Assembly: GCA_000092065.1 (NCBI GenBank) | Contig: CP000586.1 | Direction: 5' to 3' (one strand) | Length of the DNA: 64,000 bases | Source: Ostreococcus lucimarinus | Taxonomy: Eukaryota | Part shown: positions 22,774-61,871 of the stretch, one piece after another | Numbering within the stretch: the stretch's first letter is position 1 | Layout: each line of letters opens with the position of its first letter | The notes under the pieces: model-generated | The model's database searches: none | Told to the model about the DNA's origin: nothing | The model's input: the letters and a program-made list of their open reading frames with translations, nothing else | Program-made: the position numbers and the translations under genes

Positions 22774-22949
22774 TGACTCCGGTGGGGTTCGAACCCACGC
22801 CCTTTCGGACCAGAATGTTACGTTGCGATTGTTCTCGCATGGTACGAAAGCGGGCGCGCGCGCGACTCGCGTCGCGCGCGTTGTTTTTCCCGTAGTTCCT
22901 CCTCGTGTTCTCCTTAATCTGGCGCCTTAGACCACTCGGCCACAGAGTC
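22774..22949 (-). tRNA. tRNA-Leu (anticodon AAG), class II, with a ~96-nt intron at the canonical 37/38 position
   Basis: Reverse complement reads GACTCTG TG GCC GAGTGGTCTAA GGC G CCAGA TTAAGG [intron] T TCTGG TCCGAAAGGGC GTGGG TTCGAAC CCCAC CGGAGTC A. Acceptor and anticodon stems pair (with G-U wobbles); U33 and G37 present; T-loop GTTCGAA. Exons are 22949..22912 and 22815..22774. Confidence 0.75.
22816..22911 (-). other. tRNA intron (~96 nt) containing a perfect 10-bp GC hairpin with a GCGA tetraloop
   Basis: The sequence between anticodon-loop nt 37 and 38 contains CGCGCGCGAC-GCGA-GTCGCGCGCG. Confidence 0.6.
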
Positions 22950-30721: not shown

Positions 30722-30947
30722 TCGGTTCCGACGCGCTCGACCGCGCGTCATCGTCTGCGTCTTCGTCGTCGCTCGTCCACGTCTTCGCGCGCGCTGAACC
30801 GTCGACACGACGACGGACGGCAGCGGCATCGCGTTCATCGATCGCGTCGCGCGCGTCGTACGCGAACGCCTCGAACGGCGGATTCATGCGTCGTCGTGTG
30901 CGACGCGACGCGAATCGAATTTGAAATCGCGTCTGAGAGTCGGACAT
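26907..30947 (-). CDS. CHD: CHD-type chromodomain-helicase-DNA-binding chromatin remodeler (CHD1-like)
   Basis: Tandem chromodomains (EFCVKWEGVSHRRCSWE; EYLVKWCGLGYAAATWE). SNF2 ATPase (ILGDEMGLGKT, DEAHKLKN) with helicase C domain. Poly-D tracts. Track ORF extends to 31367 across the promoter; the start is taken as ATG 30947 (MSDSQTRF), with ATG 30887 (MNPPFE) as an alternative. Confidence 0.85.
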
Positions 30948-30954
30948 TCGGCGC

Positions 30955-30980
30955 GTGTACAAACGTATGTACAAACAGTG
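30955..30980 (-). promoter_or_regulatory. Promoter motif CACTGTTTGTACATACGTTTGTACAC (minus strand), ~8 nt upstream of the CHD ATG, inside a GTAC-core cluster
   Basis: The reverse complement of 30955-30980 matches the recurring motif. Five GTAC cores lie between 30955 and 31030. Confidence 0.5.
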
Positions 30981-31110: not shown

Positions 31111-32670
31111 ATGCGCGCGCGCGCGACGCCGCGCGCGCCCGCCGCGCGCGCGACGTCCGCGGCGCGCGCGCGACTCGGACGCGCGGCGCCGACGCGACCC
31201 GCGCGCGACGCGCGCGAACGCGACGCGCGACGGCGACCGAAGACGCCATCGCGACGACGACCGAAGACGCGCGCGGTCGTCGACGCGCGCGAACGACCGC
31301 GGGGCGCGGGGCGCGGCGCGCGAACGTGGGACGACGCGGACGCGACGCGAGAGGTCGGGACGAGCACGACGGCGCAGGCGCGCGCGAACGCGGTGAATAT
31401 CTTGCTCGGCGTGGGGACGCTGAGCGTGCCGTACGCGCTGCGCGAGGCGGGATGGAGCGGATTGGGGGTGCTGATGACTTTGGGGGTGGTGACGAATTAT
31501 ACGGGGAAGATTTTGATCAAGTGTCAGCGGCGAGGGAGCCTGCCGGCGAATGAACGGTCGGTCGACGTGAGAAACGCGGCGGAGCTCGCGATGAACACCG
31601 GAGTGTGCGGCGATGAATTTTGCGCGGATGTGGACTACGACGACGCGCGGTTTCGGGCGATGCGATCGCCTCGTCGGGCGTTGATGTCGTACGAGGACAT
31701 CGGAGAGGCCGCGTTCGGGGTGAACGGGCGGAATTTCATCACGTTCGTCTTGTACACGGAGCTGATTGGCACCGCAGGCTTGTTTTTCATTCTCGAGGGC
31801 GATCATCTGGCGAAGCTTTTCCACATGCAAGGTAAAGAGGAACTCTTTTCCGCATGCGCGGCGCTCGCGATGGTGCCAACGACGTGGCTGTTAGATTTAT
31901 CCAGCCTGTCGTACGTCGGCGCGCTCGGCTTGTGCGCTTCGGTGAGCGTCACCGGCGTGATGCTGTACGAATTATTTAGCCAAGTCATATCGACCGGAGA
32001 GTTGCCTCGGGCGGCAGCCGAGACGGCGATGATACATTACTCTACGTTTCCCGTGAGCTTTGGCCTTTTGGCTTTCGTGTTCGCCGGTCACGCGGTGTTT
32101 CCCGCGATTTACGCGAGCATGGAGAAGCCGGAAGAGTACGAGGAGATGCTCGACAATTCTTACGCCATCGTGGCCTTGAACTGTCTCGCGCTCGGCGTTG
32201 CGGGATACTGCTTATATGGCGACAACGTTGCTGATCAAGTCACCCTGAACCTTCCAGCGGGATCGCTCGCCACACTCGCGTTCGCGTTGATTACTGTGAA
32301 CCCGTTGGCGAAATTCGCGCTGACTTTGGATCCCGTCGCCAAGGGCGCCGAAGAAAAACTCAAGCTCCGCGTCAAGGAGTCCAGCAAAGATGCATTCATC
32401 TCTCGGCTTGTTCGTACCACGCTCGGCGTCACTGCGCTCGGTATCGCCGTCAAGCTTCCATTTTTTGGCGTCGGCATGTCGCTCATCGGCAGCGTGTTGA
32501 CGCTCACCGTCTCTGTACTGTTTCCATCGCTGTGCTATCTCCGCATGTTCGACGACGACATCGACGACGCCGAGAAACTCATCAACTACGCGATATTAGC
32601 CATCGGCACCGCGTGCGTCGTTTCCGGCACCGCTGGCGCGCTCGACTCCGCCTTCGCCGTCGCCGCGTAA
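31111..32670 (+). CDS. Amino acid transporter (Aa_trans/AVT-like), ~11 TM
   Basis: Aa_trans-type multi-TM profile through to FPSLCYLRMF. Track ORF opens at 31009, upstream of the promoter motif, so the likely start is ATG 31111 (MRARATPR). Confidence 0.7.
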   Translation: MRARATPRAPAARATSAARARLGRAAPTRPARDARERDARRRPKTPSRRRPKTRAVVDARERPRGAGRGARTWDDADATREVGTSTTAQARANAVNILLGVGTLSVPYALREAGWSGLGVLMTLGVVTNYTGKILIKCQRRGSLPANERSVDVRNAAELAMNTGVCGDEFCADVDYDDARFRAMRSPRRALMSYEDIGEAAFGVNGRNFITFVLYTELIGTAGLFFILEGDHLAKLFHMQGKEELFSACAALAMVPTTWLLDLSSLSYVGALGLCASVSVTGVMLYELFSQVISTGELPRAAAETAMIHYSTFPVSFGLLAFVFAGHAVFPAIYASMEKPEEYEEMLDNSYAIVALNCLALGVAGYCLYGDNVADQVTLNLPAGSLATLAFALITVNPLAKFALTLDPVAKGAEEKLKLRVKESSKDAFISRLVRTTLGVTALGIAVKLPFFGVGMSLIGSVLTLTVSVLFPSLCYLRMFDDDIDDAEKLINYAILAIGTACVVSGTAGALDSAFAVAA

Positions 32671-37365: not shown

Positions 37366-38481
37366 CTAATCAGCGAAGAGATAGTCGAGCAGGGGCGCGA
37401 CGCACGCCACGCTCATCGAGTTGCCCAAAAGCGTGTACTTTTGACGAGTGGTCAAGTTCGACGGCCACGCGAAATCATTCGGAAGTGAGTGCAACCGTGC
37501 GACCTCATCGACGGTAAAATATCTTAAACGTACGTCGCTCGCGCCATCGCCCATGCGCCCGTCCCACGTAGCCTTGTCGACGCTTTGATTTGCCACGACG
37601 GATCCCGTGCCTTTGACGTATTTGTAGTAACTCTTTGTGAAGCAGTTGCACGTCGTGTCTTCAGCGGTGACTATGTCTATGCTACCCTTGGCGCGATCCA
37701 CGTCATCCTGCTTGACCGCGTTCGCGCGCCAAATATCATCGGTTGCACGATCCAGAAACCTCGAGAGCGGCGCGACGACGACGTCGGCGTCCCTGACGTC
37801 GTCGAAATCCGGAATCCACTCCCTGCGATGCGACAGCTTGCTCGGCGGAGGCGAGCGTCGTATCTCGTCCACGCCGTCCTCAAACGCGCGCGTCGAACGG
37901 GCGAGCATGAAATATCTCGGCCGACTGTAAGGCACGCCGAACATGGTCGGTGTGAGTATGAACTCTTGCGCGTGGAACGCCGACGCGGAGAGCGCGTCTC
38001 GCAGCGCGTCTCGCATGCGACTCGTCTCGAATCCCACCACGTTCTCGACGAACACGTACTTCGGCCGCGCGCTCGCATCCATCTTCACCATCTCGTCCAC
38101 CAACCGCATGAAGCTCTCCGCGCGCCCATCGTCGACGTCCAACTTTAACCCCGCGCGCGTGAACGGTTGACACGGCGGCGACATCGCCCACGCCTCCGCC
38201 TTCGTCTTCACCAGCGTCTCCATCGCCACGCTCACCAAGCTCTTCTGCGACGGTCGCGTCCCATAATTCATCGCGTACGCGTCGCACGCGTTCGGATTCA
38301 CGTCGTACGCGCCGCACACCTCCGCTTCGTCGCCTCGCGCGCGTCGCAGCGCCGCGTGCATGACGCCGACGCCGCAGTACATCTCCAGCACTCGCAATTT
38401 CCCGCCCCTCCGCGTCCTCGCCGTCGCGCCGTCGCGCGTCCCGTCGTCTTCATCGTCTCTCGCGCGCGTTCGCTTCGTCAT
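37366..38481 (-). CDS. DNMT2: DNMT2/TRDMT1-type tRNA (cytosine-5) methyltransferase
   Basis: Motif I (LEMYCGVGV), motif IV (PPCQPFTRAG) and motif VI (ENVVGF). Length ~370 aa, typical of DNMT2. Confidence 0.8.
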   Translation of the reverse strand: MTKRTRARDDEDDGTRDGATARTRRGGKLRVLEMYCGVGVMHAALRRARGDEAEVCGAYDVNPNACDAYAMNYGTRPSQKSLVSVAMETLVKTKAEAWAMSPPCQPFTRAGLKLDVDDGRAESFMRLVDEMVKMDASARPKYVFVENVVGFETSRMRDALRDALSASAFHAQEFILTPTMFGVPYSRPRYFMLARSTRAFEDGVDEIRRSPPPSKLSHRREWIPDFDDVRDADVVVAPLSRFLDRATDDIWRANAVKQDDVDRAKGSIDIVTAEDTTCNCFTKSYYKYVKGTGSVVANQSVDKATWDGRMGDGASDVRLRYFTVDEVARLHSLPNDFAWPSNLTTRQKYTLLGNSMSVACVAPLLDYLFAD

Positions 38482-42565: not shown

Positions 42566-45118
42566 TCAGAGGAACTTTTTGACGACGCGCTTGGACTCGT
42601 CGACGACGGACTCGAGGTCATCCTTGAGGTTGGCGTCCGAGGTGCCGTAGCGTTGGAACGAGTAAACCAACACGCCGGCGCCGAGAAGCTCTAACAATCG
42701 CGGCGCCGCGATGGCGACGAGCGGCCAGCGGGCGACGTTGCCGAGCACGTACGTGCCCGCGAGGGCGGTGGCCGGGCCCGCGATGTCGACCACGGGGTTT
42801 TCGCTGTCACCGAACCATTCCGGGACCTCCTTGAGCGTGTCGGTCACTTCGGAAATGTCGACGTCTTGCACCGCAGACACCGTCTTGGAGGCGGTCTTAC
42901 CGATCGGGGCCAGTTGATCGATGACTTCGCCGACATCGCCTGGCAACTCGCGCGGCAAGTTGGCGGCGAGATCTTCGATGTCGTCCGCGATATCGTCTTC
43001 GCCGACGAGGAGGTAACGCTCCAAGAGCAAGACGGCGGTCAGGGTGCCGATGAATTCGAGCGGACCCGGCACGAGCGAGCCGAGAACGGGCAAGTGCGCG
43101 ACGGCGTCGGTAGCCACGACAGCACCGACGGTGGCAGCCTTTACGTTAAAGTTGTCGATACCATCAATCGTCTCGAAAACTCCATCCGCCGCACCTTCAA
43201 GGTCGCCCTCGAGGAGCGAATCTCTGACGCCCGGCACGGCCAACGCGAGCGCGACGGCGGTGGCCAAGCTTACGGCGGCGACGTCACTGAACGTGGCGCC
43301 GACGAAGTCAAGGCTCTTGCTGCTGTTGTTGCGCGCAGTGGCGTCCGCGCGCGCCTTCGCAGTCTTGGCCTTGACTTCTTTAGCCTTCTTGTCCGCGAGA
43401 GCCTTCTTCTTCGCGGCGGCGGCAGCCTTGGCGTCAACCTTCTTCGCGGCGGGCTTGGAAGCGGCGGGCTTGGAAGCTGCGGGCTTCGGCGCGGCGGGCT
43501 TCGGCGCGGCGGCTTCAACCTTCGGCACGGCGGCTTCGACGGCCTTCTCTGCGGCGGCAACTTCTCTTTCCGCGGCTTGCTCGGCGCGAAGCGCTTCGCG
43601 TTCCGCGGCTTGCGCCTTGGCGGCGGCGGCGCGAGTGGCCTTGTCGTTGGTCATCGCCGCTTCCATCTTCGCCTTGGCGGCGGCTCGGGCGGCAACTTTT
43701 TCGGTAGCGGCGGCCTTAGCGGCGTTCGCTCTGGCAGCTTGCGCAGCCTTTCTGGCGGCCACTTGCTTATCGGCGCTCGACGTCGCTGCGCTGACGCGCT
43801 TTCTGCTCGATTCCGATTTCTCCGCGATGAGCTTCGCTCGCGCGTCGGCGGCAGCCTTGCGTTCGGCTTGCTTTTTAGCCGCAAGCTTGGAGGCCGCAGC
43901 AGCCTTCTCAGCTTGCTTGATGGCGCCCGGGGTCTTCTTCGGCGCTTGGATGACCGGAGCTTGAACAACCGGAGCTTCGACGACGGGTTCGACGACGACG
44001 GGCTTCTCCGCCTTTACCGGCGCCTTCTTCGCAAGACGCGCCTTCTTCGCGGCTTCAAGCTTGGCCGCGTTCGCAGCCTTAGCTTTGGCGGCAGCTTCTG
44101 CGCGTTCGGTGGCAGCCTTTTGCGCGGCGGCGGCAGCCTTCTCCGCTTCCGCGTCGCGCGCCGCCTTGATCTTGGCCAATTCCGCTTCGCGAGCCTCCTT
44201 GGCGGCTTCGCGCTTCGCCGCGGATGGCTTATCCGCGGACTTCGTCGGCATTTCCGCGACGGCAGGCGCTTCAGCCACCGGCGCGGTGGCCTTGGAAGCG
44301 ACACGCTTGACCGGACGCTTCGTCGTCGGCGCTGCCGTGGCTGCCGGCGCTGGCGCAGCCTTAGACGCCACGCGCTTCACCGGACGCTTCGTCGGCGGCG
44401 CCGCCACACCCTTCACGGTGCGCTTAGACACGACGCGCTTCACCGGACGCTTCGTCGTCGCCGCCGCCACACCCTTCACGGTGCGCTTAGACACGACGCG
44501 CTTCACCGGACGCTTCGTCGTCGCCGCCGCCTTGACCGCGGGCGCGGTCTTAGACGCCACGCGCTTCACCGCGCGCTTCGTCGTCGGCGTCGCCTTACCG
44601 GGCGCCGCCTTCGACGCGACGCGCTTCACCGGACGCTTCGTCGCCGGCACCGCCGTCGCCGTCGCCTTGGTCGCCGTTCGCGCGCGCACCTTCCTCACGC
44701 CCTTTCGCGCCCCCCCGCTCGTCGTTTTCGCCTTAAATTCCTTCTTCCCCGCCTTGACCTTCGGCGCGACGCGCGACGCCGTCGACTTCGCCGTCGTCGT
44801 CGTCGCTCGCCGCTTCGTCGTCCGTTCGTACGGCGTCCCTCTCCCGTTCACCGTCGACGCTCGCTTCGCCTCGTACGCCTCCGCGACGTCCGTCATCCCC
44901 ACGATCGCGCTCACCGCCACCGCCGTCGCCGCCATCGCCGTCGACCGTCGCTTCGCGTCGTCGTCGTCGTCGCTTCGCGCGTCGCCGTCGTCGCGTCGCG
45001 TCGTCGCGCGTCGCGCGATCGTCGCCTTCCCGCGTCGCGCATCGCGCGTCGCGCGTCGCGTCGTCGCGTCGCGTCGCCGCGCGGGCGCGCTCGGGATCGT
45101 CGCCGCCGCGAGGGACAT
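42566..45118 (-). CDS. Basic-repeat protein with a C-terminal CAAD/CURT1-like membrane domain
   Basis: Presequence-like N-terminus. Eight or more tandem ~20-aa repeats (TTKRPVKRVASK...). ~300 aa A/K/E-rich coiled region. C-terminus WPLVAIAAPRLLELLGAGVLVYSFQRYG resembles the CURT1/CAAD motif PLLPKVMELVGLGYTGWFVYRYLLF. Confidence 0.6.
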   Translation of the reverse strand: MSLAAATIPSAPARRRDATTRRATRDARRGKATIARRATTRRDDGDARSDDDDDAKRRSTAMAATAVAVSAIVGMTDVAEAYEAKRASTVNGRGTPYERTTKRRATTTTAKSTASRVAPKVKAGKKEFKAKTTSGGARKGVRKVRARTATKATATAVPATKRPVKRVASKAAPGKATPTTKRAVKRVASKTAPAVKAAATTKRPVKRVVSKRTVKGVAAATTKRPVKRVVSKRTVKGVAAPPTKRPVKRVASKAAPAPAATAAPTTKRPVKRVASKATAPVAEAPAVAEMPTKSADKPSAAKREAAKEAREAELAKIKAARDAEAEKAAAAAQKAATERAEAAAKAKAANAAKLEAAKKARLAKKAPVKAEKPVVVEPVVEAPVVQAPVIQAPKKTPGAIKQAEKAAAASKLAAKKQAERKAAADARAKLIAEKSESSRKRVSAATSSADKQVAARKAAQAARANAAKAAATEKVAARAAAKAKMEAAMTNDKATRAAAAKAQAAEREALRAEQAAEREVAAAEKAVEAAVPKVEAAAPKPAAPKPAASKPAASKPAAKKVDAKAAAAAKKKALADKKAKEVKAKTAKARADATARNNSSKSLDFVGATFSDVAAVSLATAVALALAVPGVRDSLLEGDLEGAADGVFETIDGIDNFNVKAATVGAVVATDAVAHLPVLGSLVPGPLEFIGTLTAVLLLERYLLVGEDDIADDIEDLAANLPRELPGDVGEVIDQLAPIGKTASKTVSAVQDVDISEVTDTLKEVPEWFGDSENPVVDIAGPATALAGTYVLGNVARWPLVAIAAPRLLELLGAGVLVYSFQRYGTSDANLKDDLESVVDESKRVVKKFL

Positions 45119-45209
45119 GTCGTTCGCGAGCCGTGCGCGCGCGCGTGTGCGCGCGCGATCGCCGCGGCGTCGCGAATCGAATCGGATAATCGTCCAAATC
45201 TCTAGTTTT

Positions 45210-45374
45210 CACTGTTTACGCATACGTAACGTATTCTGCGTACGTTTACGCTATGAATGACGCTTGACGTGGTCGTATGTACTGTTTACGCATACGTAAC
45301 GTATTCTGCGTACGTTAACGCTATGCATGACGCTTGACGTGGTCGTATTCTGCGTTCGCACTGTTTGCGCGTCC
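45210..45374 (+). repeat. Tandem 70-bp repeat, 2.3 copies, in the promoter of the PRP3 gene
   Basis: Units at 45211-45280 and 45281-45350 are ~94 % identical; partial third copy cgcactgtttgcgcg. Each unit carries CACTGTTTACGCATACG plus ACGT cores (TACGTAACG, TGACGCTTGACGTGG). Confidence 0.85.
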
Positions 45375-45724
45375 AACGCGTCGGTCGCCGCGCGCGGCGT
45401 CGACGACCGCGCGCGCACACCGCGACGGACCGCGACGACGGCATGCGCGCGTCGCGGTCGCGGTCGCGGTCGCGGTCGACCGATCGGTCGACGGCGCGCG
45501 CGAGCGCGCGCGACGGCGACGGCGCGCGAGGGACGGCGGCGTCGGACCGGGCGCGCGTGGACGGGATGACGGTGCGCGCGCTGCGGGACGCGCTGCGCGC
45601 GCGAGGGATGGCCACGGACGGGGTCAAGGCGACGCTGGCGGCGCGGTTGCTCGAGAGCGCGGGCGGTTCGGAGGGAGGGACGAAGCGGGCGCGGGAGGGG
45701 GGGGCGGCGCGCGACGGCGACGGC

Positions 45725-45777
<53 letters not shown>

Positions 45778-46270
45778 GGGGACGACGGCGACGCGAGCGA
45801 CGAAACGAAGGCGGTGGGAGGATGGCGACGGTGCGGAGGGGGCGGGGGAGGCGAAACCGGAGGCGGTGGTGGCGAAACCCAAGGCGGCGGGCGGTTTGGA
45901 CAAGGCGGCGCTGTTGAAGCAAAAGCAGGCGTTGTTGAAGCAGAAAGAACTCGCGGCGAAGCTCAAGGCGAAGAAGGTGGCGGACGAGAAAGCGAAGGCG
46001 GCTGCGGGGTCGCGTCCGAGCGCGCGTCCGATGGCGCTGCGACTCGACGCGCAAGGTCGAGAGATTGACGAACGCGGCGAATTGGTGGTGAACAAGGTTA
46101 TCGAGACGTCGACGCTGAGCGTGAATTTGAAGCAGCAACGCGCGAACGCTTTCGCGCAGGCGCAGGCGGAAGCGCAAGCGGAGATCGCGAGTCAGGCCGG
46201 GGCGGATTTTGACGATCCCAGAATGCGGGCTTTCGCGGGAAAGACTCGGAAAAAGCGTTCGGCTTTACAG
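45365..46270 (+). CDS. PRP3: PRP3-like U4/U6 snRNP protein, exon 1 (SAP-motif N-terminus)
   Basis: SAP motif MTVRALRDALRARGMATDGVKATLAARLLE followed by K/A-rich region. Exon ends at CAG|GTGCGT. Start is ATG 45365, or ATG ~45566 at MTVRAL. Confidence 0.65.
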
Positions 46271-46679
46271 GTGCGTTTGAATCGACGCGATTTCCAACCG
46301 CCTCGTGATTTTTTCTTCGTCATTGCATCTTTCAAAGCTCCGTGGTAATCTCACGACATGCCCCTTGGAGACTACAAGATTGCAAAATTGAAAGGCTGGC
46401 GCTCTAATACTCCTCTGAGGTTTCCACTCAGGAGGGTTACGCTGCGTCGGTACATTTTCCACGAAAGCAAGTTACACTCTGTCGCGAGACCTTCTCATGT
46501 CACGTTGCAATTTTTATGCTTGCGATAGTAAATAGCGGATTGGACAGCTGGCGGGGCGCTCTTATCATAGTGGGCGTCATCTCCTTACCATCCGAACCAC
46601 ATTTTTTTGGTTTCGACGAGAAACGTTTTTCTCGGCTTTTCGCCGACTGACCTCGTTTTGCGCGCGTTTTCGTTTGCAG
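46271..46679 (+). other. Spliceosomal intron 1 of PRP3 (GT...AG, 409 nt), markedly lower GC
   Basis: Donor CAG|GTGCGT. Polypyrimidine tract plus TTTGCAG| acceptor. The reading frame of exon 2 (phase 0) matches. Confidence 0.7.
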
Positions 46680-47484
46680 TTCGTCGAGGACGGTAAGTTT
46701 CAGAAAGAAGCCGACATGCACAGGCTTCGCATGCAATTCGGCGACGAAAAGGCGGAAAGGATGAAGGAGCGATCTGAGCGCGAGCGCAAACACGCCGAAC
46801 GCATGGAAAAGTTGGAAAAGGAGGCGACGATGGATCCCAACTTGGTTCCGGTAGGCGAGCGCCCTTCGGCGGCGAAGGGTGCGAGCGCGGCGAGGCCGTT
46901 AGCGCCTTTGGATGAAATACCCGACGTCGAATGGTGGGACCGGGATATTTTGCGTAACGGGACGTACGACGACGTCACGGGTGGAAAATGGAACGTGAAT
47001 ATGGACAAGTTTAACGTGTACGTCGAGCACCCCGTGCCGATCAAACCGCCTCTGAACGCGCCTGCGCCGGCGCCGCAACCTCTGATGCTCACTAAAGCGG
47101 AGCAGAAGAAACTGCGCACGCAGCGTCGCGTCGCACGAGAAAAGGAAAAGCAAGAGATGATCAGGCAAGGGTTGATTGAGCCCCCGAAACCAAAGGTGAA
47201 AATCTCCAATTTGATGCGCGTGTTGAAGGACGAAGCCGTGCTCGATCCCACAGCTATGGAGAAGGAAGTGCGAGAGCAGATGGCTGAGCGCGAGCAAGCT
47301 CACCAAGATAGAAATTTAGCGCGCATGCTCACGCCGGCGGAACGACGTGAGAAGAAGATGCGCAAGTTGCTAGGGAACGATGCGGCGGGCGAGGTACACA
47401 TGCACGTGTACCGCGTCGAAGACATGTCCAACACAAAGAATAAGTTCAAGGTTGACGTGAACGCGCAAGAGAATCACTTGACGG
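46680..47484 (+). CDS. PRP3: PRP3 exon 2
   Basis: Translation FVEDGKFQKEADMHRLRMQFGDEKAERMKE...TPAERREKKMRKLLG...HLTG collinear with PRP3/DUF1115. Exon ends at ACGG|GTACGT. Confidence 0.7.
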
Positions 47485-47692
47485 GTACGTTTCACGTTCG
47501 TAACTTCACTCGACATCGATATTTCGTCTTTGATGAATTCGCGAAACCATTACTAGTACTGAAAGCCTCAGAGCCTCCGGGCTTTGATCGAGACAAACGC
47601 TATCCCTGAGACGCTCTGTTGTGAGAACGCTGACGACGTCGCGGGGCCGCGCGCGACTGATGACTGACCAGAAGAAATTCGATCACACGCAG
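47485..47692 (+). other. Spliceosomal intron 2 of PRP3 (GTACGT...CAG, ~208 nt)
   Basis: Canonical donor and acceptor. Splicing restores homology to the human PRPF3 C-terminus (...VVVEGG..RLMLHRIKWDE...NKCVLVWEG...). Confidence 0.65.
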
Positions 47693-48021
47693 GCGTCGGT
47701 TTAATCGCTGAAGCATTCACGATTGTGATCGTCGAGGGAACGGCGAAAGCCGTTCGCCGTTACGACAAACTCATGATGCGCCGAATCGATTGGAACGCCA
47801 AGCTGAACGATGATAACGACGAAATGGACGCCGACGACGCGAAGAAGAACAAGTGCACTCGCGTGTGGAGAGGGACCTCGACATCACACGCTCTGAGACG
47901 CTTCTGTTTCGAGACGTTTCGATCGGATGCGGCGGCTCGACGATACTTAGCAGAGTTCAAGCTCGAACATCTTTACGACGCCGCGTTTGCGGCGATCGCG
48001 TGCGCCGAAGATTCGGAATAA
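47693..48021 (+). CDS. PRP3: PRP3 exon 3 (C-terminal DUF1115-like end)
   Basis: IVIVEGTAKAVRRYDKLMMRRIDWNAK...NKCTRVWRGTS...EHLYDAAFA matches the PRP3 C-terminus. Stop at 48019-48021. Confidence 0.65.
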
Positions 48022-48085
48022 TGTAATACCATGAAATGAGAGATGGGACGAGAAATCTACTGACATTGTTGATCTTTTACACGCA

Positions 48086-49693
48086 CTAATGCAATTCGAG
48101 CAATTTCATGAGCTTTGCGGCGATATCGAGCGAAATCATCACACCTCCATCCACGCGCTGGAAATCCACCATTAGCCTATCGTTTGGCATCTTGTACACT
48201 TGGAGTTCAAACTTCAACACCGTAGGCTCACGCTGTCGACCTGGGCGCATGGTTGAGCGACCGTCTTCGCTCATTGGTGGTGTCGTGACGCCGAGGTCTT
48301 CGTCCATCGCGTCTTGATCGCCCGCCGCGACGTCACCGTCCGCCATGTCGTTGTCCATAGCGTCGCCGTGGCAGTGGAGAACGCACATGCACTTCATGTT
48401 ATACGGTCCGTTCTTCTTCCAAGACACGTCCATCACGCGTAATACGCGAATCAACTCGTTGAAAACGTCTAGTGCGCCCATCTTTGAAGCCGTTCCAAGC
48501 ATCCAACGCTGCTCGGCGACGAGACGCTGTTGCATCATGTGCGCGTGCACTTGACTCGGTCGTCGCACGCCTAGTGCAGACGCGACGCCGTGTCGCATGT
48601 TGTTGTGTTCCGCCATGATCTCTGCATCGTCGTATTCGGCGCCTAAGTACCCACCGTATATGTTTCGCCTATTGTCCAGTAGCAAGTAATACGTCACCGT
48701 CGCCTTGTTACGGATTTGATGCCTTAGAGCGTCAATCAACGGTTCGCGCTCAAAGCCTAAGTTGATCACCATATCCAAAGTCTCCCCATCGAGATTGGAT
48801 GTTTGCGATATCTGCGTTTGCGGCGGTACCACGAGATAGCGCGGTAGATGCACGACGAACCACTGATGGTGACGAATCTCCGCCATGGTGATTCGCTTGA
48901 GCGGGTCTACGAAGAGCATGCGCGATATTAAGTCTCGCGCCCCCGGGCTCAGATGGCTTGGTAAGCTATATACCCCACCCTTGATCTTTTTAAACAAGTT
49001 TGGGATGCTTTCATCGTCGAAAGGCAACGATCCACACAGAAGCGCGTACAAAATCACCCCGCAACTCCACACGTCCACCTCGGGGCCGCTGTACAGCTTG
49101 CCGCTAATCACCTCTGGCGCGGCGTAGTTGGGACTCCCGCACGACGTCTTCAAAAAGTGACCGTCCCGCATGACGTTCGACAACCCGAAATCCGCAATCT
49201 TGACGTTATTCCGCGAATCCAGCAACAAGTTTTCCGGCTTCAAGTCGCGATGCACGACCATATTCCGATGGCAATACTCCACCCCCGATATGATTTGTTG
49301 AAAGAAATGCCTCGCCTCGTTTTCCCCCAATCGTCCCTTCTCCACGATGTAATCGAACAACTCGCCCGACTTCACGTACTCCATCACCAAAAAGATGTCG
49401 TGCGGCGTCTCCAATATCTCGTACAACCGAATGATGTGCGGATGCATGAACAGCCGCAAAATCTTAATCTCCCGTCGCACCTTTTCCTCCATGTCGATCG
49501 CCTTGATCTTCTTCCGATTCAAAATCTTGATCGCCACCTTGTGTCCCGTCAGCACGTGTTCCGCCACTTTCACCTTCCCGAACGACCCGATCCCGAGCGT
49601 CTTCCCGATGCGATAGTTCGGCAGGTAAATCTCCGCTTGCCCTCGCGACGCCCCCCCGCTCGCGTGCGTCCCGCTGTCCTCCCCGCCCTCCAT
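48086..49693 (-). CDS. SNRK1: SnRK1/AMPK-alpha-type protein kinase (plant SnRK1-like)
   Basis: Kinase subdomains GSFGKVK, HRDLKPENLLL, DFGLS and the T-loop. Plant-type HLPRYLVVPP and UBA/KA1-like C-terminus. Confidence 0.9.
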   Translation of the reverse strand: MEGGEDSGTHASGGASRGQAEIYLPNYRIGKTLGIGSFGKVKVAEHVLTGHKVAIKILNRKKIKAIDMEEKVRREIKILRLFMHPHIIRLYEILETPHDIFLVMEYVKSGELFDYIVEKGRLGENEARHFFQQIISGVEYCHRNMVVHRDLKPENLLLDSRNNVKIADFGLSNVMRDGHFLKTSCGSPNYAAPEVISGKLYSGPEVDVWSCGVILYALLCGSLPFDDESIPNLFKKIKGGVYSLPSHLSPGARDLISRMLFVDPLKRITMAEIRHHQWFVVHLPRYLVVPPQTQISQTSNLDGETLDMVINLGFEREPLIDALRHQIRNKATVTYYLLLDNRRNIYGGYLGAEYDDAEIMAEHNNMRHGVASALGVRRPSQVHAHMMQQRLVAEQRWMLGTASKMGALDVFNELIRVLRVMDVSWKKNGPYNMKCMCVLHCHGDAMDNDMADGDVAAGDQDAMDEDLGVTTPPMSEDGRSTMRPGRQREPTVLKFELQVYKMPNDRLMVDFQRVDGGVMISLDIAAKLMKLLELH

Positions 49694-50053
49694 CGCGCCT
49701 CCGTCGCGCGTCCGTCCGAGCGCGCGCTCGCGTCGCGCTCGCGTCGCGCGCGACCGTCGCTCGCGTCACGCGTCGTCGCGCGGTCGCGCGCGTTCGCGTT
49801 CGCGCGTCGCGCGCGCCGATCGACGCGCCTCGCGCGAGAATAAAATTACGACGCGTCTCGAGACGCGCGCGCGTCCGGGTCGCGCGCGCGCCGCGCGGGC
49901 GCTCGAGTCGACGCGCTCTCTCTCGCGCGCGCCGTTCGCGGTCGCGCGCGCGCGCGCGGTCGCGTGTGCGGCCGACGCGCGCGAGGGCACGGGCCAACGA
50001 ACGGCGTTGCGTCGAGGACGGCTCGTGACTGTTTACCCATACAAAAAGAGTGA

Positions 50054-52210
50054 GTGTTGAGTCACGACCCGTCGATCGGCGTGGGTCGGCACACCCGCGT
50101 GTGCGGCGTCGCCCGCCGCGTCGCCCGCGCGCGCCGTCGACCGCGCACCGCGACGCGACCGCGACGCGCGCGCCCGCGGGACGATCGCGACGTCCCGTCG
50201 CGACCGGACGCGCGCGGGCGCGCGGTCGACGGACGCGGCGCGGCGCGATTTTTACCGAAAACGCGTCGCGGCGCGGCGACGCGCGACGCGACGGCGATGG
50301 CGACGCGACGCGACGGCGTCGCGCGGGCGGTGGCGCGCGCGGTGCGAAGTCGCGCGATGTGCGGCGCGATGACGGTGACGCGAGGCGCGGGCGAGGCGGG
50401 ACGCGAGGACGCGCGAGGGACGACGCGGGCGTTTCGCGCGACGGCGCGCGGCGAGCGGGACGAGGTCGAGCTCGAGGACGCGCGCGGTGAGTCGGCGACG
50501 CGACGTCCGATGGTGCCGTGGACGCGACAGGTGGTGTCTGGGGTGGAACTGCTGCGGTCGGGGAAGTATAACAAAGGGATGAGCTTCACGCGGGACGAAC
50601 GCGATAGGTTGAACTTGCGCGGGTTGTTGCCGCCGGCGGTGTTCGATCAGAGCGTGCAGGTCGAGCGCGTGATCGAGCGCTTGCGTCGGGTGACGAACGA
50701 CGTCGAAAAACATGCGTGGCTCGCGTCGCTGTACGAACGAAACGAGCGGCTGTTTTATCGCGTGGTGAAGGACCATTTGGAGGAGTTGTTGCCGATTTTA
50801 TCGGCGCCGACGGTTTGGCAAGTGTGCGCCGAGTTTGGTTTGATGTACAGACGACCGCGCGGGTTGTACATCTCCATCAAAGACCGCGGGTCCGTGTATA
50901 GGCTGTTGAAAAATTGGCCCGTGCGCGACGTCAAGGCGATCGTGCTCACGGACGGGCAACGCGTCACGGGACTCGGCGATTTGGGCGTCCAAGGCATGGG
51001 CACGGCGGTGGGCAAGTCGACGTTATTCACCGCGCTCGGCGGCCTCGACCCGGCGGACGTGTTGCCAATTTGTATCGATGTGGGTACGGACAACCAGGCG
51101 TTGCTCGAGGATAAGTTTTACATCGGTCTGAGGCAAAAGCGAACCGGCGGCGAGGAATACGACGACTTGCTCGACGAAGTCGTCTACGGGTTGAAGCGGC
51201 GTTTCGGCCCGCGCGTGTTGCTATGCTTCGAAGAATTTTCCAACAAGAACGCAAAGCGATTGCTTGATCGATACAACAGCAATTCTGTCGCGTATTGCGA
51301 TGATTTGCAGGGCATCGCTGCGACGACGTTGGCGGCGATTATCTCGGCGCTGCCGCAAATGGGCGGATCATTGAGAGAGCAGCGGTTTCTTTTCGCCGGC
51401 GCCGGGGAGACCGGTGCACACACCGCAGATTTATTGGCGACGTATATTTCGCAACAACACGGCATATCGTTGCCCGAGGCGCGAGAGAACATTTATTTCA
51501 TAGATAGAAAAGGTTTGGTGACGCGCGATCGGGCGCAACGCGAGGACGATTTGGAAATTCACAAACTACCCTACGCGCACGACATGGAAGGTGCGGCGTC
51601 CGTGCGCGAATCCGTCGAGCTCATCAAACCGACGGCGTTGATTGGCGTCCGTCGACACCGATTTTCCTTCTTCGAAGGCTCAGTGCTGAAGGATGAAAAG
51701 CTCTTCACCGAGGACGTGTTGCGCGCGATGGCGAAACATAGCGAGAAACCGCTCATCATGGCGCTTTCGCGACCGAGCGCGCTGCGCGAGTGCACGGCCA
51801 AGGAAGCGTACGAGGCGACGAACGGGAAGTGCATCTTCGTCGGCGGGTGCAAGTCGACGCCGTTCGAGTACGCGGGTAGAGAAATCGCGCCGTCCGAATG
51901 CAGCACCGAATACGTCTTTCCGGGATTGGGACTCGGCTTGACCATCGCCGAAGGCACGCGCGTGCGAGACTCTTTACTCATGGAAGCCGCCGAAGTCGTG
52001 GCCAACAGCGCCACTCCGGGCGATATCGCTCGCGGCGCCGTGTTCCCGCGAAAGCGCCACATTCCCGACGTCTCCGCGCGCGTCGCCGCGCGCGTCGCCG
52101 GTAAGGCGTTCGCGAGCGGTTTGTCCGCGCTCCCGGGCAAGCCCATGGACTGGCTTCGCTTGGCGAAATCGTGGATGTTCGACCCGACGTATCGCCCCTA
52201 CACGCCTTGA
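50054..52210 (+). CDS. NAD(P)-dependent malic enzyme, with presequence. Probable start ATG ~50300 (MATRRDG); GTG at 50054 opens the ORF.
   Basis: VLTDGQRVTGLGDLGVQGMGTAVGKSTLFTALGG and FAGAGETG Rossmann motif, typical of malic enzymes. Confidence 0.85.
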   Translation: MLSHDPSIGVGRHTRVCGVARRVARARRRPRTATRPRRARPRDDRDVPSRPDARGRAVDGRGAARFLPKTRRGAATRDATAMATRRDGVARAVARAVRSRAMCGAMTVTRGAGEAGREDARGTTRAFRATARGERDEVELEDARGESATRRPMVPWTRQVVSGVELLRSGKYNKGMSFTRDERDRLNLRGLLPPAVFDQSVQVERVIERLRRVTNDVEKHAWLASLYERNERLFYRVVKDHLEELLPILSAPTVWQVCAEFGLMYRRPRGLYISIKDRGSVYRLLKNWPVRDVKAIVLTDGQRVTGLGDLGVQGMGTAVGKSTLFTALGGLDPADVLPICIDVGTDNQALLEDKFYIGLRQKRTGGEEYDDLLDEVVYGLKRRFGPRVLLCFEEFSNKNAKRLLDRYNSNSVAYCDDLQGIAATTLAAIISALPQMGGSLREQRFLFAGAGETGAHTADLLATYISQQHGISLPEARENIYFIDRKGLVTRDRAQREDDLEIHKLPYAHDMEGAASVRESVELIKPTALIGVRRHRFSFFEGSVLKDEKLFTEDVLRAMAKHSEKPLIMALSRPSALRECTAKEAYEATNGKCIFVGGCKSTPFEYAGREIAPSECSTEYVFPGLGLGLTIAEGTRVRDSLLMEAAEVVANSATPGDIARGAVFPRKRHIPDVSARVAARVAGKAFASGLSALPGKPMDWLRLAKSWMFDPTYRPYTP

Positions 52211-52230
52211 GCGTCGATTCGTCTCGTCTC

Positions 52231-52277
52231 CGCGCGTTGTGATACCACTCGATTCACGCGCGTTGTGATACCACTCG
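52231..52277 (+). promoter_or_regulatory. Direct repeat 2x ~21 bp (CGCGCGTTGTGATACCACTCG) in the 90-bp spacer between malic enzyme and the next gene
   Basis: Copies at 52231-52251 and 52258-52277, separated by ATTCAC. Confidence 0.6.
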
Positions 52278-53283: not shown

Positions 53284-53877
53284 CTACGCCTCGCTCGTTT
53301 TCGGCTTGGAGCCCGCGCCGGTCTCCGCCAACCCGTTCAACTCCTCGTTCAACTTCTTCACGTTCTTCTCCACCCCACTCTCCGCTTGATCGCTGAAATT
53401 ATCGATCGCCGCGTTCAACGCCGCGATCTTATCGTTCAAATTCTGTCTCGTCACCTCCAGCTCGTCCTCGCTCTCGTCGTCCAGCGCCTTGTTCAGCGCG
53501 CGCTTCCCCCCCAGCAGCGTCTTGCTCAGTTGCGGCGCGAACAAGAACCCCAGCGCGCCGAACACCGCGCCACCGACGAGCAATCCACCGACGAATCCCT
53601 TCCCGCGTCCTTTGCGCTCCTCGAACTCGCTGCGCGCGCGCACGTCGCGCCGTCCATCGCCGATTCGCGCGCGCGCGAATCCAGCCCGCGGTCGTTCGCG
53701 CGCGCGATTCTCCCTCGCGCATCGCGCGCGCGCGGGCGTCGCGCGCGCGCGCGGCGCGTTCGCGCCGACGACACTCGCGCGCATCGCTCTCGCGTCGCGC
53801 GCGCGCGCGGGCGTTCGCGCGGCGTCGTGTGACGCTCGGACGCCGCGCGTCGCGGCACCGAACGTTCGGGTCGCCAC
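53284..53877 (-). CDS. hypothetical plastid-type single-TM protein with coiled-coil C-terminus
   Basis: R/A-rich presequence. TM segment GFVGGLLVGGAVFGALGFLFA. Amphipathic C-terminus. Confidence 0.4.
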   Translation of the reverse strand: MATRTFGAATRGVRASHDAARTPARARDARAMRASVVGANAPRARATPARARCARENRARERPRAGFARARIGDGRRDVRARSEFEERKGRGKGFVGGLLVGGAVFGALGFLFAPQLSKTLLGGKRALNKALDDESEDELEVTRQNLNDKIAALNAAIDNFSDQAESGVEKNVKKLNEELNGLAETGAGSKPKTSEA

Positions 53878-53884
53878 TCGCTCT

Positions 53885-53901
53885 CACTGTTTACCCATAC
53901 G
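53885..53901 (+). promoter_or_regulatory. Promoter motif CACTGTTTACCCATACG, 32 nt upstream of the LepA ATG
   Basis: One of five oriented copies; the others are at 50028-50042, 45210-45226/45281-45296, 30955-30980 (minus) and 61666-61681. Confidence 0.5.
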
Positions 53902-53932: not shown

Positions 53933-55933
53933 ATGGCGTCGCGCACGGCGTCGCCGCGCGCCGCGCGCGCGCCGTGCGTCTCGCGCGCGCCCACCTCGCC
54001 CACCGCGCGCGTCTCGAGGCGCGCGCGCGCGCGCCGGGCGTCGCGCGTGACGCCCAGCGCGACGCCGCCCAAGGCGCCGCCCAAAAACGAAGTCGCGCCG
54101 CCGACGCCCGGTCAGGTGCGCCAGGTGCCGCCGAGTCGCATACGAAACTTTAGCATCATCGCGCACATCGATCACGGGAAGTCCACGCTGGCGGACACGC
54201 TGCTGATGCGGACGAAGACGGTGAAGGAGCGGGACATGGTGAAGCAGGTTTTGGATAGCATGGACTTGGAGCGCGAGCGGGGGATCACGATCAAGCTGAA
54301 CAGCGCGCGGATGGATTACGTGGCGAGCGACGGGGAGCTGTACGTGCTGAATTTGATCGATACGCCGGGACACGTGGATTTTTCGTACGAGGTGTCGAGA
54401 TCGTTGGCGGCGTGCGAGGGGGCGTTGCTCGTGGTGGACTCGAGCCAGGGCGTGGAGGCGCAGACGGTGGCGAACGTGTACTTGGCGCTGGAGAATGATT
54501 TGGAGATTTTCACGGTGCTGAATAAGATTGATTTGGCGGGGAGCGAACCGGATCGGGTGAAACAGGAGATCGAGGACGTGTTGGGGTTGGACGCGAGCGA
54601 CGCGATTTTGGCGAGCGCGAAGGCAAACATCGGGATGGACGACATCTTGGAACGCATCGTGCAGGTGGTGCCACCGCCTCGCGACACCGCGAACGAACCG
54701 CTTCGGGCGTTAATCTTCGATTCGTATTTCGATCCCTATCGCGGTGTCGTCGCCGTGTTCCGAGTCATGGACGGGACGATGAAGACGGGGGACGCGATGA
54801 AGATGATGGCCACGGGCGCGACTTTCGCTGCGGATGAGATCGGCATCATGCGTCCAGACAAGGTGCCGGTGAAAGAGCTCGGCCCTGGTGAGGTCGGCTA
54901 CATCATCGGTGGCATCAAGTCAGTCGCGGATGCGCGCGTCGGGGACACGATCACGCTCTCAAAGAATCCCGCCGCCGAGGCGCTGCCGGGTTACTCAAAG
55001 TCGGTGCCGATGGTGTTCGCGGGAATCTTCCCCACCGATACCGATCGATACGATGACTTGCGCGAATCTCTCCAACGGCTGCAAATCAACGACTGCTCGC
55101 TGTCGTTTGAACCCGAGCAAAACAGCGCCATGGGCACGGGCTTTCGCTGCGGTTTCCTCGGGTTGCTTCACATGGAAATCATCCAAGAACGACTCGAGCG
55201 CGAGTATGATTTAGATTTGATCACCACCGCACCTTCGGTGGTTTACAACGTGTATAGAACAGATGGAACGATGGATTCGATATCCAATCCGGCGGACTTG
55301 TGCCCGCCAGAGCTTCGCGAACGAATCGAGGAACCGTACTGCAGATTGGACATGATCGCCCCTTCGGATTACGTGGGCACGCTCATGGAACTTGCGAGCC
55401 AACGGCGTGGAGAGTTCATCGACATGACGTACCTTTCCGAGACGCGTACCTCAATCAAGTACGACATACCTTTGGCCGAGGTCGTCACGAATTACTTCGA
55501 CGACATGAAGTCGCGTTCTCGCGGGTACGCCTCGATGGAGTACGCCATCACGGGGTACCGCCAGAGCGATCTCGTGCGCTTGGACGTCTTGATCAATCAA
55601 GAGCCGGCCGATCCGTTAGCGGTGATCACGCACCGCGACAGGGCATACAGCATCGGACGTCAGCTCGTCGACAAGCTCAAAGAGCTCATTCCCCGCCAAA
55701 TGTTTCGCATTCCGATTCAAGCCGCCATCGGCAACAAAGTCATCGCCGCCACTTCCATCTCCGCGATGCGCAAGGACGTCACCGCCAAGTGTTACGGCGG
55801 CGACATCTCGCGCAAGAAAAAGCTGCTCAAAAAGCAAGCCGCGGGTAAAAAGCGCATGAAGCAATTCGGCAAGGTGGAAGTTCCTCAAGACGCGTTTTTA
55901 GCCGTCTTGAGCGTCGACGGCGCCGCGGATTAA
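53933..55933 (+). CDS. GUF1: Translation factor GUF1/LepA (EF4), organellar
   Basis: [18 protein letters not shown] and NKIDL G-motifs. LepA-specific C-terminal domain (...[28 protein letters not shown]). Confidence 0.9.
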
Positions 55934-60695: not shown

Positions 60696-61568
60696 TTACA
60701 GAGTGTAATCGTACTCGATCGTCGGAACGACGGACGCGATGAATTTGAGAAAGACGAACATGTAGGAATCGACGCTCGGCGCTTCGCCGCTTTGCGCCCG
60801 CGCGGAATTCACGAGCTTTTTCATCACGCTCGCGTGCTTGCACGGATGAATCGACGCCGACGGCACGCCGGTGTGCGGATGCGGATCGATCGTCACCGTC
60901 TTTTGCGCGTGATCGGCGCTGATGTCTTCCAACGTTTTCGAAGGTTTCAACACCAGTCTGTTTTCGTCGTATCCGTTCAACCACACGCGCGGCGTTTGAT
61001 AGTATTTATCGTACGTGATCGACACGTCGTACGTTCGCGTCTTGACGATATTTTCATCGTCCCTCTCCCCGTTCGCCCCCGCCGCCTCTTTCGCGATCGC
61101 CGTCGCCGTCGGTAAGACCACCGCGTCGTCGTCTTCGTCTTCGTATTCGTCCTCCGCGTCGTCCTCCGCGTCCGCCTCGAGCGTCATCGCCCCCAAATCC
61201 GGGATCGCCTCCATCGTCGCGCCATCGCTCCTCCCGCCCGCCCCCGTCGCGATCCATCCCTCGTCCTCGCCCGTCAGCGCCTCCTCCGCGCCCGCGTACG
61301 CCTCGACGTCTCGCGCTCTTCGCGCGCACGGCACGCGTCGCGTCGTCAGGTACTGCTTCTCCCGCGGCAGGTACGTCCTCGCGCGCGCGCCCTGTCCCGT
61401 CGTCCACGTCCACGTCGGGCACGCGCGCGTCAGCGCGTCCCCCGCGGCGACGAACTCCTCGGGCGTCAGCACGCCCTCGCTCGCGAACGCGCTCGACGAC
61501 CGAATCGGCGTCACCGCCTCCATCGTCGTCTTGTACGCGCCGTGCACCGCGTGTCGCAGCGCGTGCAT
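60696..61568 (-). CDS. ATG3: Autophagy E2-like enzyme ATG3
   Basis: YLPREKQYL. Acidic flexible region. YDVSITYDKYYQTPRVWLNGYDE and catalytic HPC (ASIHPCKHA). Confidence 0.8.
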   Translation of the reverse strand: MHALRHAVHGAYKTTMEAVTPIRSSSAFASEGVLTPEEFVAAGDALTRACPTWTWTTGQGARARTYLPREKQYLTTRRVPCARRARDVEAYAGAEEALTGEDEGWIATGAGGRSDGATMEAIPDLGAMTLEADAEDDAEDEYEDEDDDAVVLPTATAIAKEAAGANGERDDENIVKTRTYDVSITYDKYYQTPRVWLNGYDENRLVLKPSKTLEDISADHAQKTVTIDPHPHTGVPSASIHPCKHASVMKKLVNSARAQSGEAPSVDSYMFVFLKFIASVVPTIEYDYTL

Positions 61569-61871
61569 GGCCGACGTCGTCGCCTCGCGCGTCGCCGCTC
61601 GCGACGCGCGCTGACGACGCGACGCGACGCCGACGCGGCGACGGCGGTCGGTATAATCGACCGCGCACTGACGCCCATACGAAATTCAAAAACCACCGCG
61701 ACGACGACGCGCGCGTCGCCACACGCGCGCGCGAGCGACGCGCGAGCGACGGGACGCGCGACGACGCGCCGCGCGATGACGCCGCGAGCGGTCGCGTCGA
61801 CGCGCGCGACGGGACGCGCGACGACGCGCGGCGCGAAGACGACGCGCGCGCGACGATGGACGGCGGCGCCG

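Follow-up and report, generated by a model that had tools for sequence, protein, structure and literature searches.

A recurrent 17-nucleotide word in divergent promoters of Ostreococcus lucimarinus and its possible role as an orientation-independent factor site

The window analysed in this study is a 64-kb stretch of contig CP000586.1 from Ostreococcus lucimarinus. Ostreococcus is the smallest free-living eukaryote, a model of the minimal genome, and a globally abundant marine alga. The DNA of the window is gene-dense and intron-poor, with a GC content of 55-70%. The product of the open reading frame (ORF) at 37366-38481 on the minus strand is identical to XP_001418536.1, a predicted protein of O. 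lucimarinus CCE9901, and other window proteins find identical proteins on hundreds of marine metagenome contigs. A Micromonas source, considered because of the GC content, was rejected on the strength of this exact protein match. TGTAA, the green-algal poly(A) signal, is seen near the 3' ends of the window genes. The element considered here is a 17-nt word with the consensus CACTGTTTAC(C/G)CATACG, which is intergenic in every window copy. Its copies lie beside genes for LepA, malic enzyme, a CHD protein, FGAM synthase, and a SAP/PRP3-like protein, and their coordinates are collected in Table 1.

The recurrence of a 17-nt motif had been reported in a sequence-only reading of the window, and it proves to be real. 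With the query CACTGTTTACSCATACG, searched at up to 3 mismatches, five matches are found against 0.11 expected from dinucleotide shuffles of the window, and a gapped variant is present in addition. When a Markov background is trained on intergenic DNA alone (9.8 kb), the expectation at the same threshold is 0.033, so that the higher AT content of such DNA does not account for the count. Intergenic DNA makes up 15% of the window and holds all of the copies. The 15-nt core is perfect in four of the six copies, and both the heptamer TGTTTAC and the nonamer ACTGTTTAC occur four times in the 64 kb, on every occasion within the full motif. Since the copies at 45210 and 45280 share one 70-nt tandem repeat, they count as a single locus; of the independent loci, three are strong, that of CHD is weak, and that of FGAM synthase is gapped. 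On the ORF-based map of the window, the motif or its variant is found in 5/9 divergent intergenic regions and in 0/~22 tandem or convergent regions, which gives a hypergeometric P of ~7e-4 by our own calculation. Of the sites, four lie between 30.9 and 53.9 kb, a span of 23 kb, and there is none in the window's first 30 kb.

Table 1. Copies of the motif and accompanying elements in the window
Feature	Sequence	Position	Strand	Context
Weak copy	CACTGTTTGTACATACG	30964-30980	-	CHD promoter; 3 mismatches, all in core
Second element	GTCGGACATTCGG	30939-30951	+	12 nt from CHD copy; overlaps first CHD ATG
Exact motif	CACTGTTTACGCATACG	45210-45226	+	SAP/PRP3-like promoter; unit 1 of tandem repeat
Tandem repeat, head-to-tail		45211-45348	+	Tandem Repeats Finder (TRF): period 70, 2.0 copies, 97% matches, score 262
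Motif copy	TACTGTTTACGCATACG	45280-45296	+	1 mismatch; unit 2 of tandem repeat
Motif copy	GACTGTTTACCCATACA	50027-50043	+	Malic enzyme promoter; 2 mismatches, both terminal; core ACTGTTTACCCATAC exact
Companion element	TTGAGTCACGACCCGTC	50056-50072	+	Malic enzyme promoter; 13-14 nt past motif
Exact motif	CACTGTTTACCCATACG	53885-53901	+	LepA promoter; 0 mismatches
Gapped variant	CACTGACGCCCATACG	61666-61681	+	FGAM synthase promoter

All five motif-bearing regions in the window are divergent promoters. For the LepA, malic enzyme, CHD, and FGAM synthase regions, which have gene starts on both sides, this agrees with the earlier description, and the four gene labels are upheld by Pfam (LepA; malic enzyme; SNF2 and Chromo domains for CHD; FGAM synthase). 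The LepA promoter is 148 nt long and separates an Ssl2009_C-like gene (53284-53784, minus strand) from LepA (ATG at 53933, plus strand), with the motif 100 nt away from the ATG on the left and 31 nt from that on the right. The malic enzyme promoter, of 603 nt, is shared with an SnRK1/AMPK-like kinase gene (48086-49693, minus strand; malic enzyme ATG at 50297, plus strand). The CHD promoter, of 163 nt, lies between CHD on the minus strand and an amino-acid transporter gene on the plus strand (ATG at 31111). The CHD start had been placed within 8 nt of the motif; the first ATG, at 30947, is 16 nt away and inside the second element TCGGACATTCGG, and the next in-frame ATG is at 30888. A TATATAT box is found 6 nt upstream of the CHD copy on the motif strand. 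FGAM synthase (plus strand) faces an ATG3/ATG10-like gene (60696-61568, minus strand), and TATAAT lies 8 nt upstream of the gapped variant. The FGAM synthase ATG assumed earlier, at 61872, does exist, but an in-frame ATG precedes it at 61776, 94 nt past the variant.

The region of the tandem repeat had been described as tail-to-head, which is wrong. The minus-strand ORF 42566-45118 encodes 850 amino acids with a GC content of 0.80 at third codon positions (GC3), the codon-position pattern of real genes here. On this strand, the start codon of the ORF falls at 45118, and therefore the region 45119-45442 is divergent as well, with the SAP/PRP3-like gene on its other side. The ORF 45443-46348 has a SAP domain in Pfam, and the PRP3 label holds by way of its syntenic counterparts in related contigs, which have PRP3/Prp3_C. 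One of the two starts proposed for this gene, at 45365, reads TTG; the first in-frame ATG is at 45443. The other, at 45566, would truncate the SAP domain, which spans residues 39-71 counted from 45443; therefore, 45443 is favoured as the most likely start, 146 nt past the second motif copy. Overall, the earlier observation is partly confirmed: it stands once the arrangement of genes at 45210 and three points on start codons are corrected.

Beyond the window, an exact scan for the 17-mer in metagenome contigs gave at least 120 loci, which were clustered on their flanks; contigs and loci used for comparison carry labels such as L002 or L190. The matches listed, to which the metagenome counts below refer, form 62 flank clusters, and 41 of these are GC-rich (>=0.56) picoalgal loci with unrelated flanks. 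The other clusters include an unrelated low-GC bacterial gene seen 16 times and about 12 scattered singles of mixed composition, which are taken as chance. At two of the 41 picoalgal loci, a protein encoded beside the motif falls into one cluster, at >=90%, with named proteins of O. lucimarinus or O. tauri. By ORF-based gene calls, the motif in the 41 loci is nearly always intergenic or on the edge of an evidently over-extended ORF, in DNA of which ~85% is coding. Among the matches listed, a plus-strand gene starts to the right of the motif in 27/29 cases and a minus-strand gene to its left in about 19/24; therefore, ~70% of these loci are divergent promoters and the remainder tandem ones. In 362 kb of locus flanks, with the seed sites and two tandem second copies left out of the count, six more matches with up to 3 mismatches are found against ~0.6 expected from the window rate. 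Very roughly, a few hundred sites in the 13-Mb genome are suggested. Motif copies are also seen among the listed matches on contigs of 46-53% GC (clusters 39-41) from a prasinophyte-like source, with a prasinophyte-type plastid GPAT nearby. Matches to the 15-mer in viral contigs were considered as well; among the matches listed, these are only scattered singles in unrelated contigs, and they were treated as chance.

Alignment of the 41 listed loci extends the consensus slightly, with preferences for T at -3 (25/41), C at -2 (23/41), any base except C at -1, A/T at +1 (30/41), and A/T at +2. The extended word of ~20 bp can be written T-C-D-CACTGTTTAC(C>G)CATACG-W. ACGC replaces ACCC in a quarter of the copies, the majority end in CATACG, and about one third continue to CATACGT, making an ACGT core. 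These preferences are weak, and past -3 and +2 the flanks of the loci are unrelated. Since the motif is all that they share, a transposon or a long dispersed repeat is excluded. The sequence-only reading had named membership of a dispersed repeat family, found equally in coding and 3' regions, as one outcome that would overturn it; the flanks are unrelated and almost all copies are in 5' intergenic DNA. The motif lies in an AT-rich island of ~80 nt, from -30 to +50, in which the AT content is 0.41-0.60 versus ~0.30 outside.

Does the motif have a fixed direction relative to its gene? The earlier claim that each copy points toward a gene carries no information in divergent regions, because either orientation meets a gene start there. 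Tandem contexts among the matches listed comprise five loci that are sense to the downstream gene (L128, L136, L155, L161, and L171) and two that are antisense. The neighbours of both antisense copies were verified in Pfam. The copy of L190 precedes an LHC-like gene by 78 nt, and an NFACT-family gene ends on its other flank; the copy of L133 is antisense to the sole adjacent gene start, and a SET-domain gene ends on its other flank. Relative to the nearest ATG, the listed matches divide into 10 sense and 13 antisense, and among 16 divergent cases the closer ATG belongs, in 11, to the gene that the motif points away from. The distance to the downstream ATG varies from 28 to ~800 nt with a median near 190, and that to the ATG of the upstream gene from 8 to ~900 nt with a median near 90. 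An association with TATA was also considered and dropped, as TATA-like words are rare around the listed motifs. The spread in orientation and distance appears to fit an orientation-independent factor site rather than a core element that positions the transcription start site (TSS). The earlier interpretation is therefore partly supported: a real, non-random promoter element is upheld, and its oriented, TSS-positioning role is not.

The motif recurs in several Ostreococcus lineages. The LepA promoter of L226, a close relative, has an identical 17-mer within diverged sequence that also contains an indel, and the exact motif of 45210 is also found in two strain variants (L140 and L164). Canonical copies are known from two lineages or more, namely the window's own and JACLAB01 (L002, L165, and L180). 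In L002, from the lineage with a 79% identical LepA, the FGAM synthase promoter has a canonical TACTGTTTACCCATACA at the place of the window's gapped variant, followed by TTCGGACATTCGG; the same promoter in L250 has only GGTTTACC (GTTTACC). The LepA promoters of L252 (LepA 92% identical), L250 (86%), L251 (85%), and L003 (79%) are without a canonical copy, and fragments remain in the first three (CACTGTGTTTAA, CACTGTATAC, and CCGTTTACCCAC, respectively). The word CACTGACGCATTCG upstream of LepA in L003 was tried as an orthologous variant and rejected; it aligns to another window segment, 53826-53840. In the CHD promoters of O. tauri (GCA_000214015.2, L246), L247, and L248, the weak window copy is not canonical. 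At up to 3 mismatches, a 23.7-kb stretch of O. tauri gave no match, and so short a sample does not allow absence to be inferred. In related lineages, canonical copies are often at different promoters and orthologous sites are often only fragments. The word is thus used across lineages, and individual sites turn over.

In a more distant GC-rich (0.67) relative, GACTGCGTGCCCATACG is found at L005:3228-3244 with 4 mismatches, in the divergent promoter of malic enzyme and the kinase. Its orientation relative to the gene pair is opposite to that of the window copy. It may be a distant orthologous remnant, or chance.

The motif is also found at subtelomere junctions. Four contigs (L153, L224, L188, and L227) start with (CCCTAAA)n, and the motif follows 22-26 nt further. 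The first ~300 nt of these contigs have the order (CCCTAAA)n, CTTTGAGGTTTTTTCATCC, the 17-mer, and ~130 nt in common. After a common junction of ~170 nt, there are two distinct continuations, one in L153/L224 and the other in L188/L227. The two continuations imply that the motif is present at two or more chromosome ends. One of the continuations has CCCAAAA-type subtelomeric repeats.

Interstitial telomere-type repeats are seen within ~20 nt of the motif at two other loci, (TTTAGGG)3 at about 1650-1680 of L217 and TTTAGGGTTTAGG upstream in L156. Contigs L191 and L241, which are alleles or sisters of these, have no such repeats.

Genes flanking the motif are functionally heterogeneous in the window and among the metagenome matches listed, and their Pfam families are diverse, which agrees with the earlier statement that the adjoining genes share no obvious function. 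Translation, RNA, and chromatin are represented by Glu/Gln-tRNA synthetase, an RRM protein, DEAD helicases, SET proteins, CHD, the PRP3-like protein, and LepA; pigments and light by a histidine-kinase rhodopsin, phytoene synthase, URO-D, and an LHC-like protein; and metabolism by phosphomannose isomerase (PMI), amidophosphoribosyltransferase (PurF), FGAM synthase, ketopantoate reductase (PanE), an acyl-CoA synthetase-like protein, and malic enzyme. A GATA factor and a Myb protein are among the regulators. The remaining neighbours are TBCC, a 2OG oxygenase, a Deg-like protease, a mitochondrial carrier, GPHR, the SnRK1-like kinase, and an ATG3-like protein.

The motif is thus a real element of promoter-bearing intergenic DNA, with unique flanks, heterogeneous neighbours, and no fixed orientation. 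With a probability of roughly 0.5, it may be an orientation-independent promoter site for one high-specificity DNA-binding factor, resembling the sites of yeast general regulatory factors (GRFs). The whole 15-17 bp would be read by a single protein or a fixed complex, perhaps one that combines several Myb-like or zinc-finger modules. The site would work in both orientations, and its place would be the core of intergenic regions with gene starts, which is richer in AT and presumably poor in nucleosomes; divergent regions shared by two genes would be preferred. The bound factor may help to open or activate the promoters of functionally unrelated genes, in a mode of action like that at the sites of Reb1, Rap1, and Abf1.

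In yeast, Reb1 (TTACCCK), Rap1 (ACCCRnRCA), and Abf1 recognise tight consensus words centred in the promoter nucleosome-free regions of many genes (PMC5880240). The motif is similar in being a high-information word that is enriched in promoter intergenic DNA and depleted from ORFs, and in lying beside functionally unrelated genes irrespective of orientation. Yeast GRF sites are also present in subtelomeric elements. The Rap1 core fits the sub-word ACCCATACA only in A-ending copies (50027 and L002:7198), whereas the majority of copies, ending in CATACG, and the ACGC variants do not fit, and TTACCCA in the motif fails the K position of the Reb1 word. Furthermore, the motif, at 15-17 nt, exceeds the yeast words in length, and its host is a green alga. 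The resemblance is a lead, in the sense of working like such sites, and not a statement of homology or membership.

Other known systems were compared as well. The ZNF143/Staf site (SBS, ~18 bp) and the sites of Drosophila M1BP (Motif 1), DREF, and BEAF-32 are long animal promoter motifs read by multi-domain binders. The likeness is that of a long, specific word near the starts of housekeeping-type genes, often bidirectional ones; however, there is no sequence similarity and those factors are metazoan. A forkhead (FOX) core had been recognised earlier in TGTTTAC, and this heptamer, which fits RYAAAYA on the other strand, is indeed present in four window copies; the earlier description added that forkhead factors are not known in green algae. 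However, the forkhead-type reading is inadequate, because in the window the heptamer is never independent of the full motif (4/4 within it); ten further positions are equally invariant, and the flanking CAC.. and ..SCATACG are as constant as the core. In the green lineage, the plant telo-box (AAACCCTA, ~8-9 nt) and site II are short promoter elements of many housekeeping genes. Telomere-like repeats do lie near the motif in L217 and L156, but the sequences differ, and TTTACCC in the motif is not a telomere repeat on either strand.

Several points weigh against a general, orientation-independent factor site. Protein binding, the kind of protein, and the opening or activation of promoters are all inferred. 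The orthologous promoters at deeper divergence are often without a canonical motif, which is quick turnover for a supposedly general element. The AT-rich island is asymmetric and longer downstream among the matches listed, and the TATA-like boxes 6-8 nt upstream of two window copies hint at a directional architecture. Many of the neighbouring genes are plastid- or light-related, which would fit a regulon-specific factor. In addition, the metagenome loci were chosen by exact match, so that they give neither a genome-wide frequency nor a spectrum of degeneracy.

The point on gene function leads to the alternative that survives best, although it is still rather unlikely: the motif may be the site of a regulon-specific transcription factor, for instance for a light- or diel-phased or a plastid-biogenesis gene set. 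Phytoene synthase, URO-D, the LHC-like protein, the histidine-kinase rhodopsin, the plastid-type GPAT, LepA, and the Deg-like protease would all suit such a set, and PurF and FGAM synthase both belong to purine synthesis. An ACGT core is present in the third of the listed copies that read CATACGT, as it is in the palindrome ATACGTAACGTAT of the PRP3 promoter. Most expressed genes of O. tauri cycle under light/dark (PMC2850359), which would also be consistent with a phased gene set. However, CHD, the PRP3-like protein, the SnRK1 kinase, the ATG3-like protein, TBCC, PMI, SET, GPHR, the mitochondrial carrier, and the DEAD helicase have no link to light or plastids, and a copy adjacent to telomere repeats is hard to reconcile with a metabolic regulon.

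A core-promoter or TSS-positioning element, with its place and orientation fixed relative to the TSS of the gene to which it points, was the interpretation offered by the sequence-only reading, and it is improbable. It draws on short distances to the downstream ATG at some sites (LepA 31 nt, CHD 16 nt, L191 28 nt), on the same-strand TATA-like boxes upstream of the CHD and FGAM copies, on the further downstream reach of the AT-rich island, and on the 5:2 lean towards sense in the listed tandem contexts. Such an element does not agree with the verified antisense copies in L190 and L133, with the 11/16 listed divergent copies that are nearer to the opposite-strand gene, or with ATG distances spread from 28 to ~800 nt and the absence of TATA from nearly all listed loci. 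Only a minority of promoters have the motif, and none of the ~12 tandem promoters in the window does.

The copies at telomere junctions raise a different thought, that the 17-mer is the recognition word of a chromosome organiser at several hundred divergent regions and at telomere junctions, acting as a boundary or nucleosome-excluding site or as a replication origin. We consider this very unlikely. An origin role, if true, would be of the budding-yeast kind, in which the origin recognition complex (ORC) reads the consensus (ACS) of an autonomously replicating sequence (ARS), and we know of no description of sequence-defined origins of this kind outside budding yeasts. A chromosome-maintenance element in place of a transcriptional one, either a sequence-defined origin or a chromatin boundary that would only happen to reside in transcription-free divergent DNA, is highly improbable. 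A long, near-invariant word at ~1 site per 16-60 kb of sampled sequence would be suitable for it, as would the preference for divergent regions, the independence of orientation and gene function, and the copy 22-26 nt from telomere repeats at two or more chromosome ends. Both the ARS consensus and GRF sites occur in the subtelomeric X elements of yeast. Nevertheless, four sites in 23 kb and none in the first 30 kb would be an odd spacing for origins, no skew signal was seen in the window, and sequence-defined replication origins are, to our knowledge, known only from budding yeasts.

It is barely plausible that the motif acts at the RNA level, as part of transcribed 5' untranslated regions (UTRs) in which an RNA-binding protein or a complementary RNA would recognise it. 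Some copies are 8-31 nt from an ATG and probably within the 5' UTR, and conservation over 15-17 nt resembles a base-pairing target; however, copies occur in both orientations relative to the adjacent gene and beside telomere repeats, and the motif, not being self-complementary, forms no hairpin of its own. An Rfam scan of the window gave no family at any motif copy, the sole match being a tRNA at 22774-22949. A relic of a mobile element or dispersed repeat, or chance similarity, is already largely refuted and has next to no probability: some copies do lie in longer duplications (the 70-nt tandem repeat, the inverted pair of ~120 nt in L220, and the subtelomeric junction), but the 41 listed loci are unrelated in their flanks up to -3 and +2, the motif is excluded from coding DNA, and five copies were observed where chance gives 0.03-0.11.

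If the motif is a general factor site of the kind preferred here, it could explain how the short intergenic regions common to two divergent genes, many of them <200 nt, are organised. Very few defined cis-elements for Ostreococcus were found in the literature searched. A near-invariant word of 15-17 nt at dozens of promoters is a precise bait for DNA-affinity purification of its factor and a ready mutational target in the transformable O. tauri. The telomere-adjacent copies raise the idea of one factor serving both promoters and chromosome ends; in yeast, Rap1, Reb1, and Tbf1 act at both. A literature search for the motif in Ostreococcus and Micromonas gave no description of it; the closest study, a phylogenetic footprinting of Ostreococcus intergenic regions by Piganeau et al. 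2009, which reportedly found conserved non-coding blocks concentrated 5' of genes, was outside the coverage of the search. The sequences of the motif and of two companion elements turned up in print only as primers, in papers on other subjects. It is likely, although not certain, that the motif was previously undescribed.

Other elements accompany the motif at a minority of loci. The tandem repeat around 45210, noted in the earlier description and present as such, consists of units that each hold the motif, the palindrome ATACGTAACGTAT, a second GTTTACGC or GTTAACGC, and TGACGCTTGACGTGG; past the repeat, at 45359, a third copy is present in part (CACTGTTTGCGCG). At 45221-45240 and 45291-45310, the motif passes at its CATACG end into the palindrome, which has two ACGT cores.

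The second element of the CHD promoter is the sole window match to TTCGGACATTCGG at up to 2 mismatches. Among the matches listed, TTCGGACATTCGG is found within 120 nt of the motif in 4/53 loci (L167, L175, L173, and L208) against ~0.4 expected from 12 background matches in 402 kb, and it is also present at L002:7229-7241. It occurs in both orientations and on both sides of the motif. A further companion word, TTGAGTCAYGAMCCGTC, is found 11-14 nt past the motif in the malic enzyme promoter, L169, L186/L202, and L220, where it has two copies and the motif itself lies within the inverted pair; it is also present without the main motif in L138 and L187. TTGAGTCAYGAMCCGTC includes the AP-1/GCN4-like heptamer TGAGTCA. 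Co-occurrence of this heptamer with the motif was set aside as minor, the strict form being present in only 2/42 listed loci. In a related Ostreococcus lineage, the CHD promoter (L247:9860-9960) is without the 17-mer and has ATCGGACATGCGG and two TATATAA boxes. ATCGGACATGCGG is the reverse complement of TTGAGTCATG; the companion words recur at the orthologous CHD promoter in a different arrangement.

A few further observations concern the window itself. GC is lower (0.55-0.58 versus 0.60-0.70 elsewhere) at 1-2000 and 46000-50000, and positions 1-1130 are coding-like, yet without a long ATG-started ORF. The segment 46349-46715 is probably an intron of the PRP3-like gene. The Rfam tRNA at 22774-22949, on the minus strand, scores 42 bits over a span of 176 nt, presumably with an intron of ~100 nt; ARAGORN makes no call there, and the match sits in a 987-nt gap separating two plus-strand genes. 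Finally, a gap of 90 nt separates malic enzyme from the plus-strand gene that follows it, which is ECM10-like in related contigs. A perfect 21-nt direct repeat, CGCGCGTTGTGATACCACTCG, is present there at 52230-52276, its two copies spaced by 5 nt, and may be a further promoter element.

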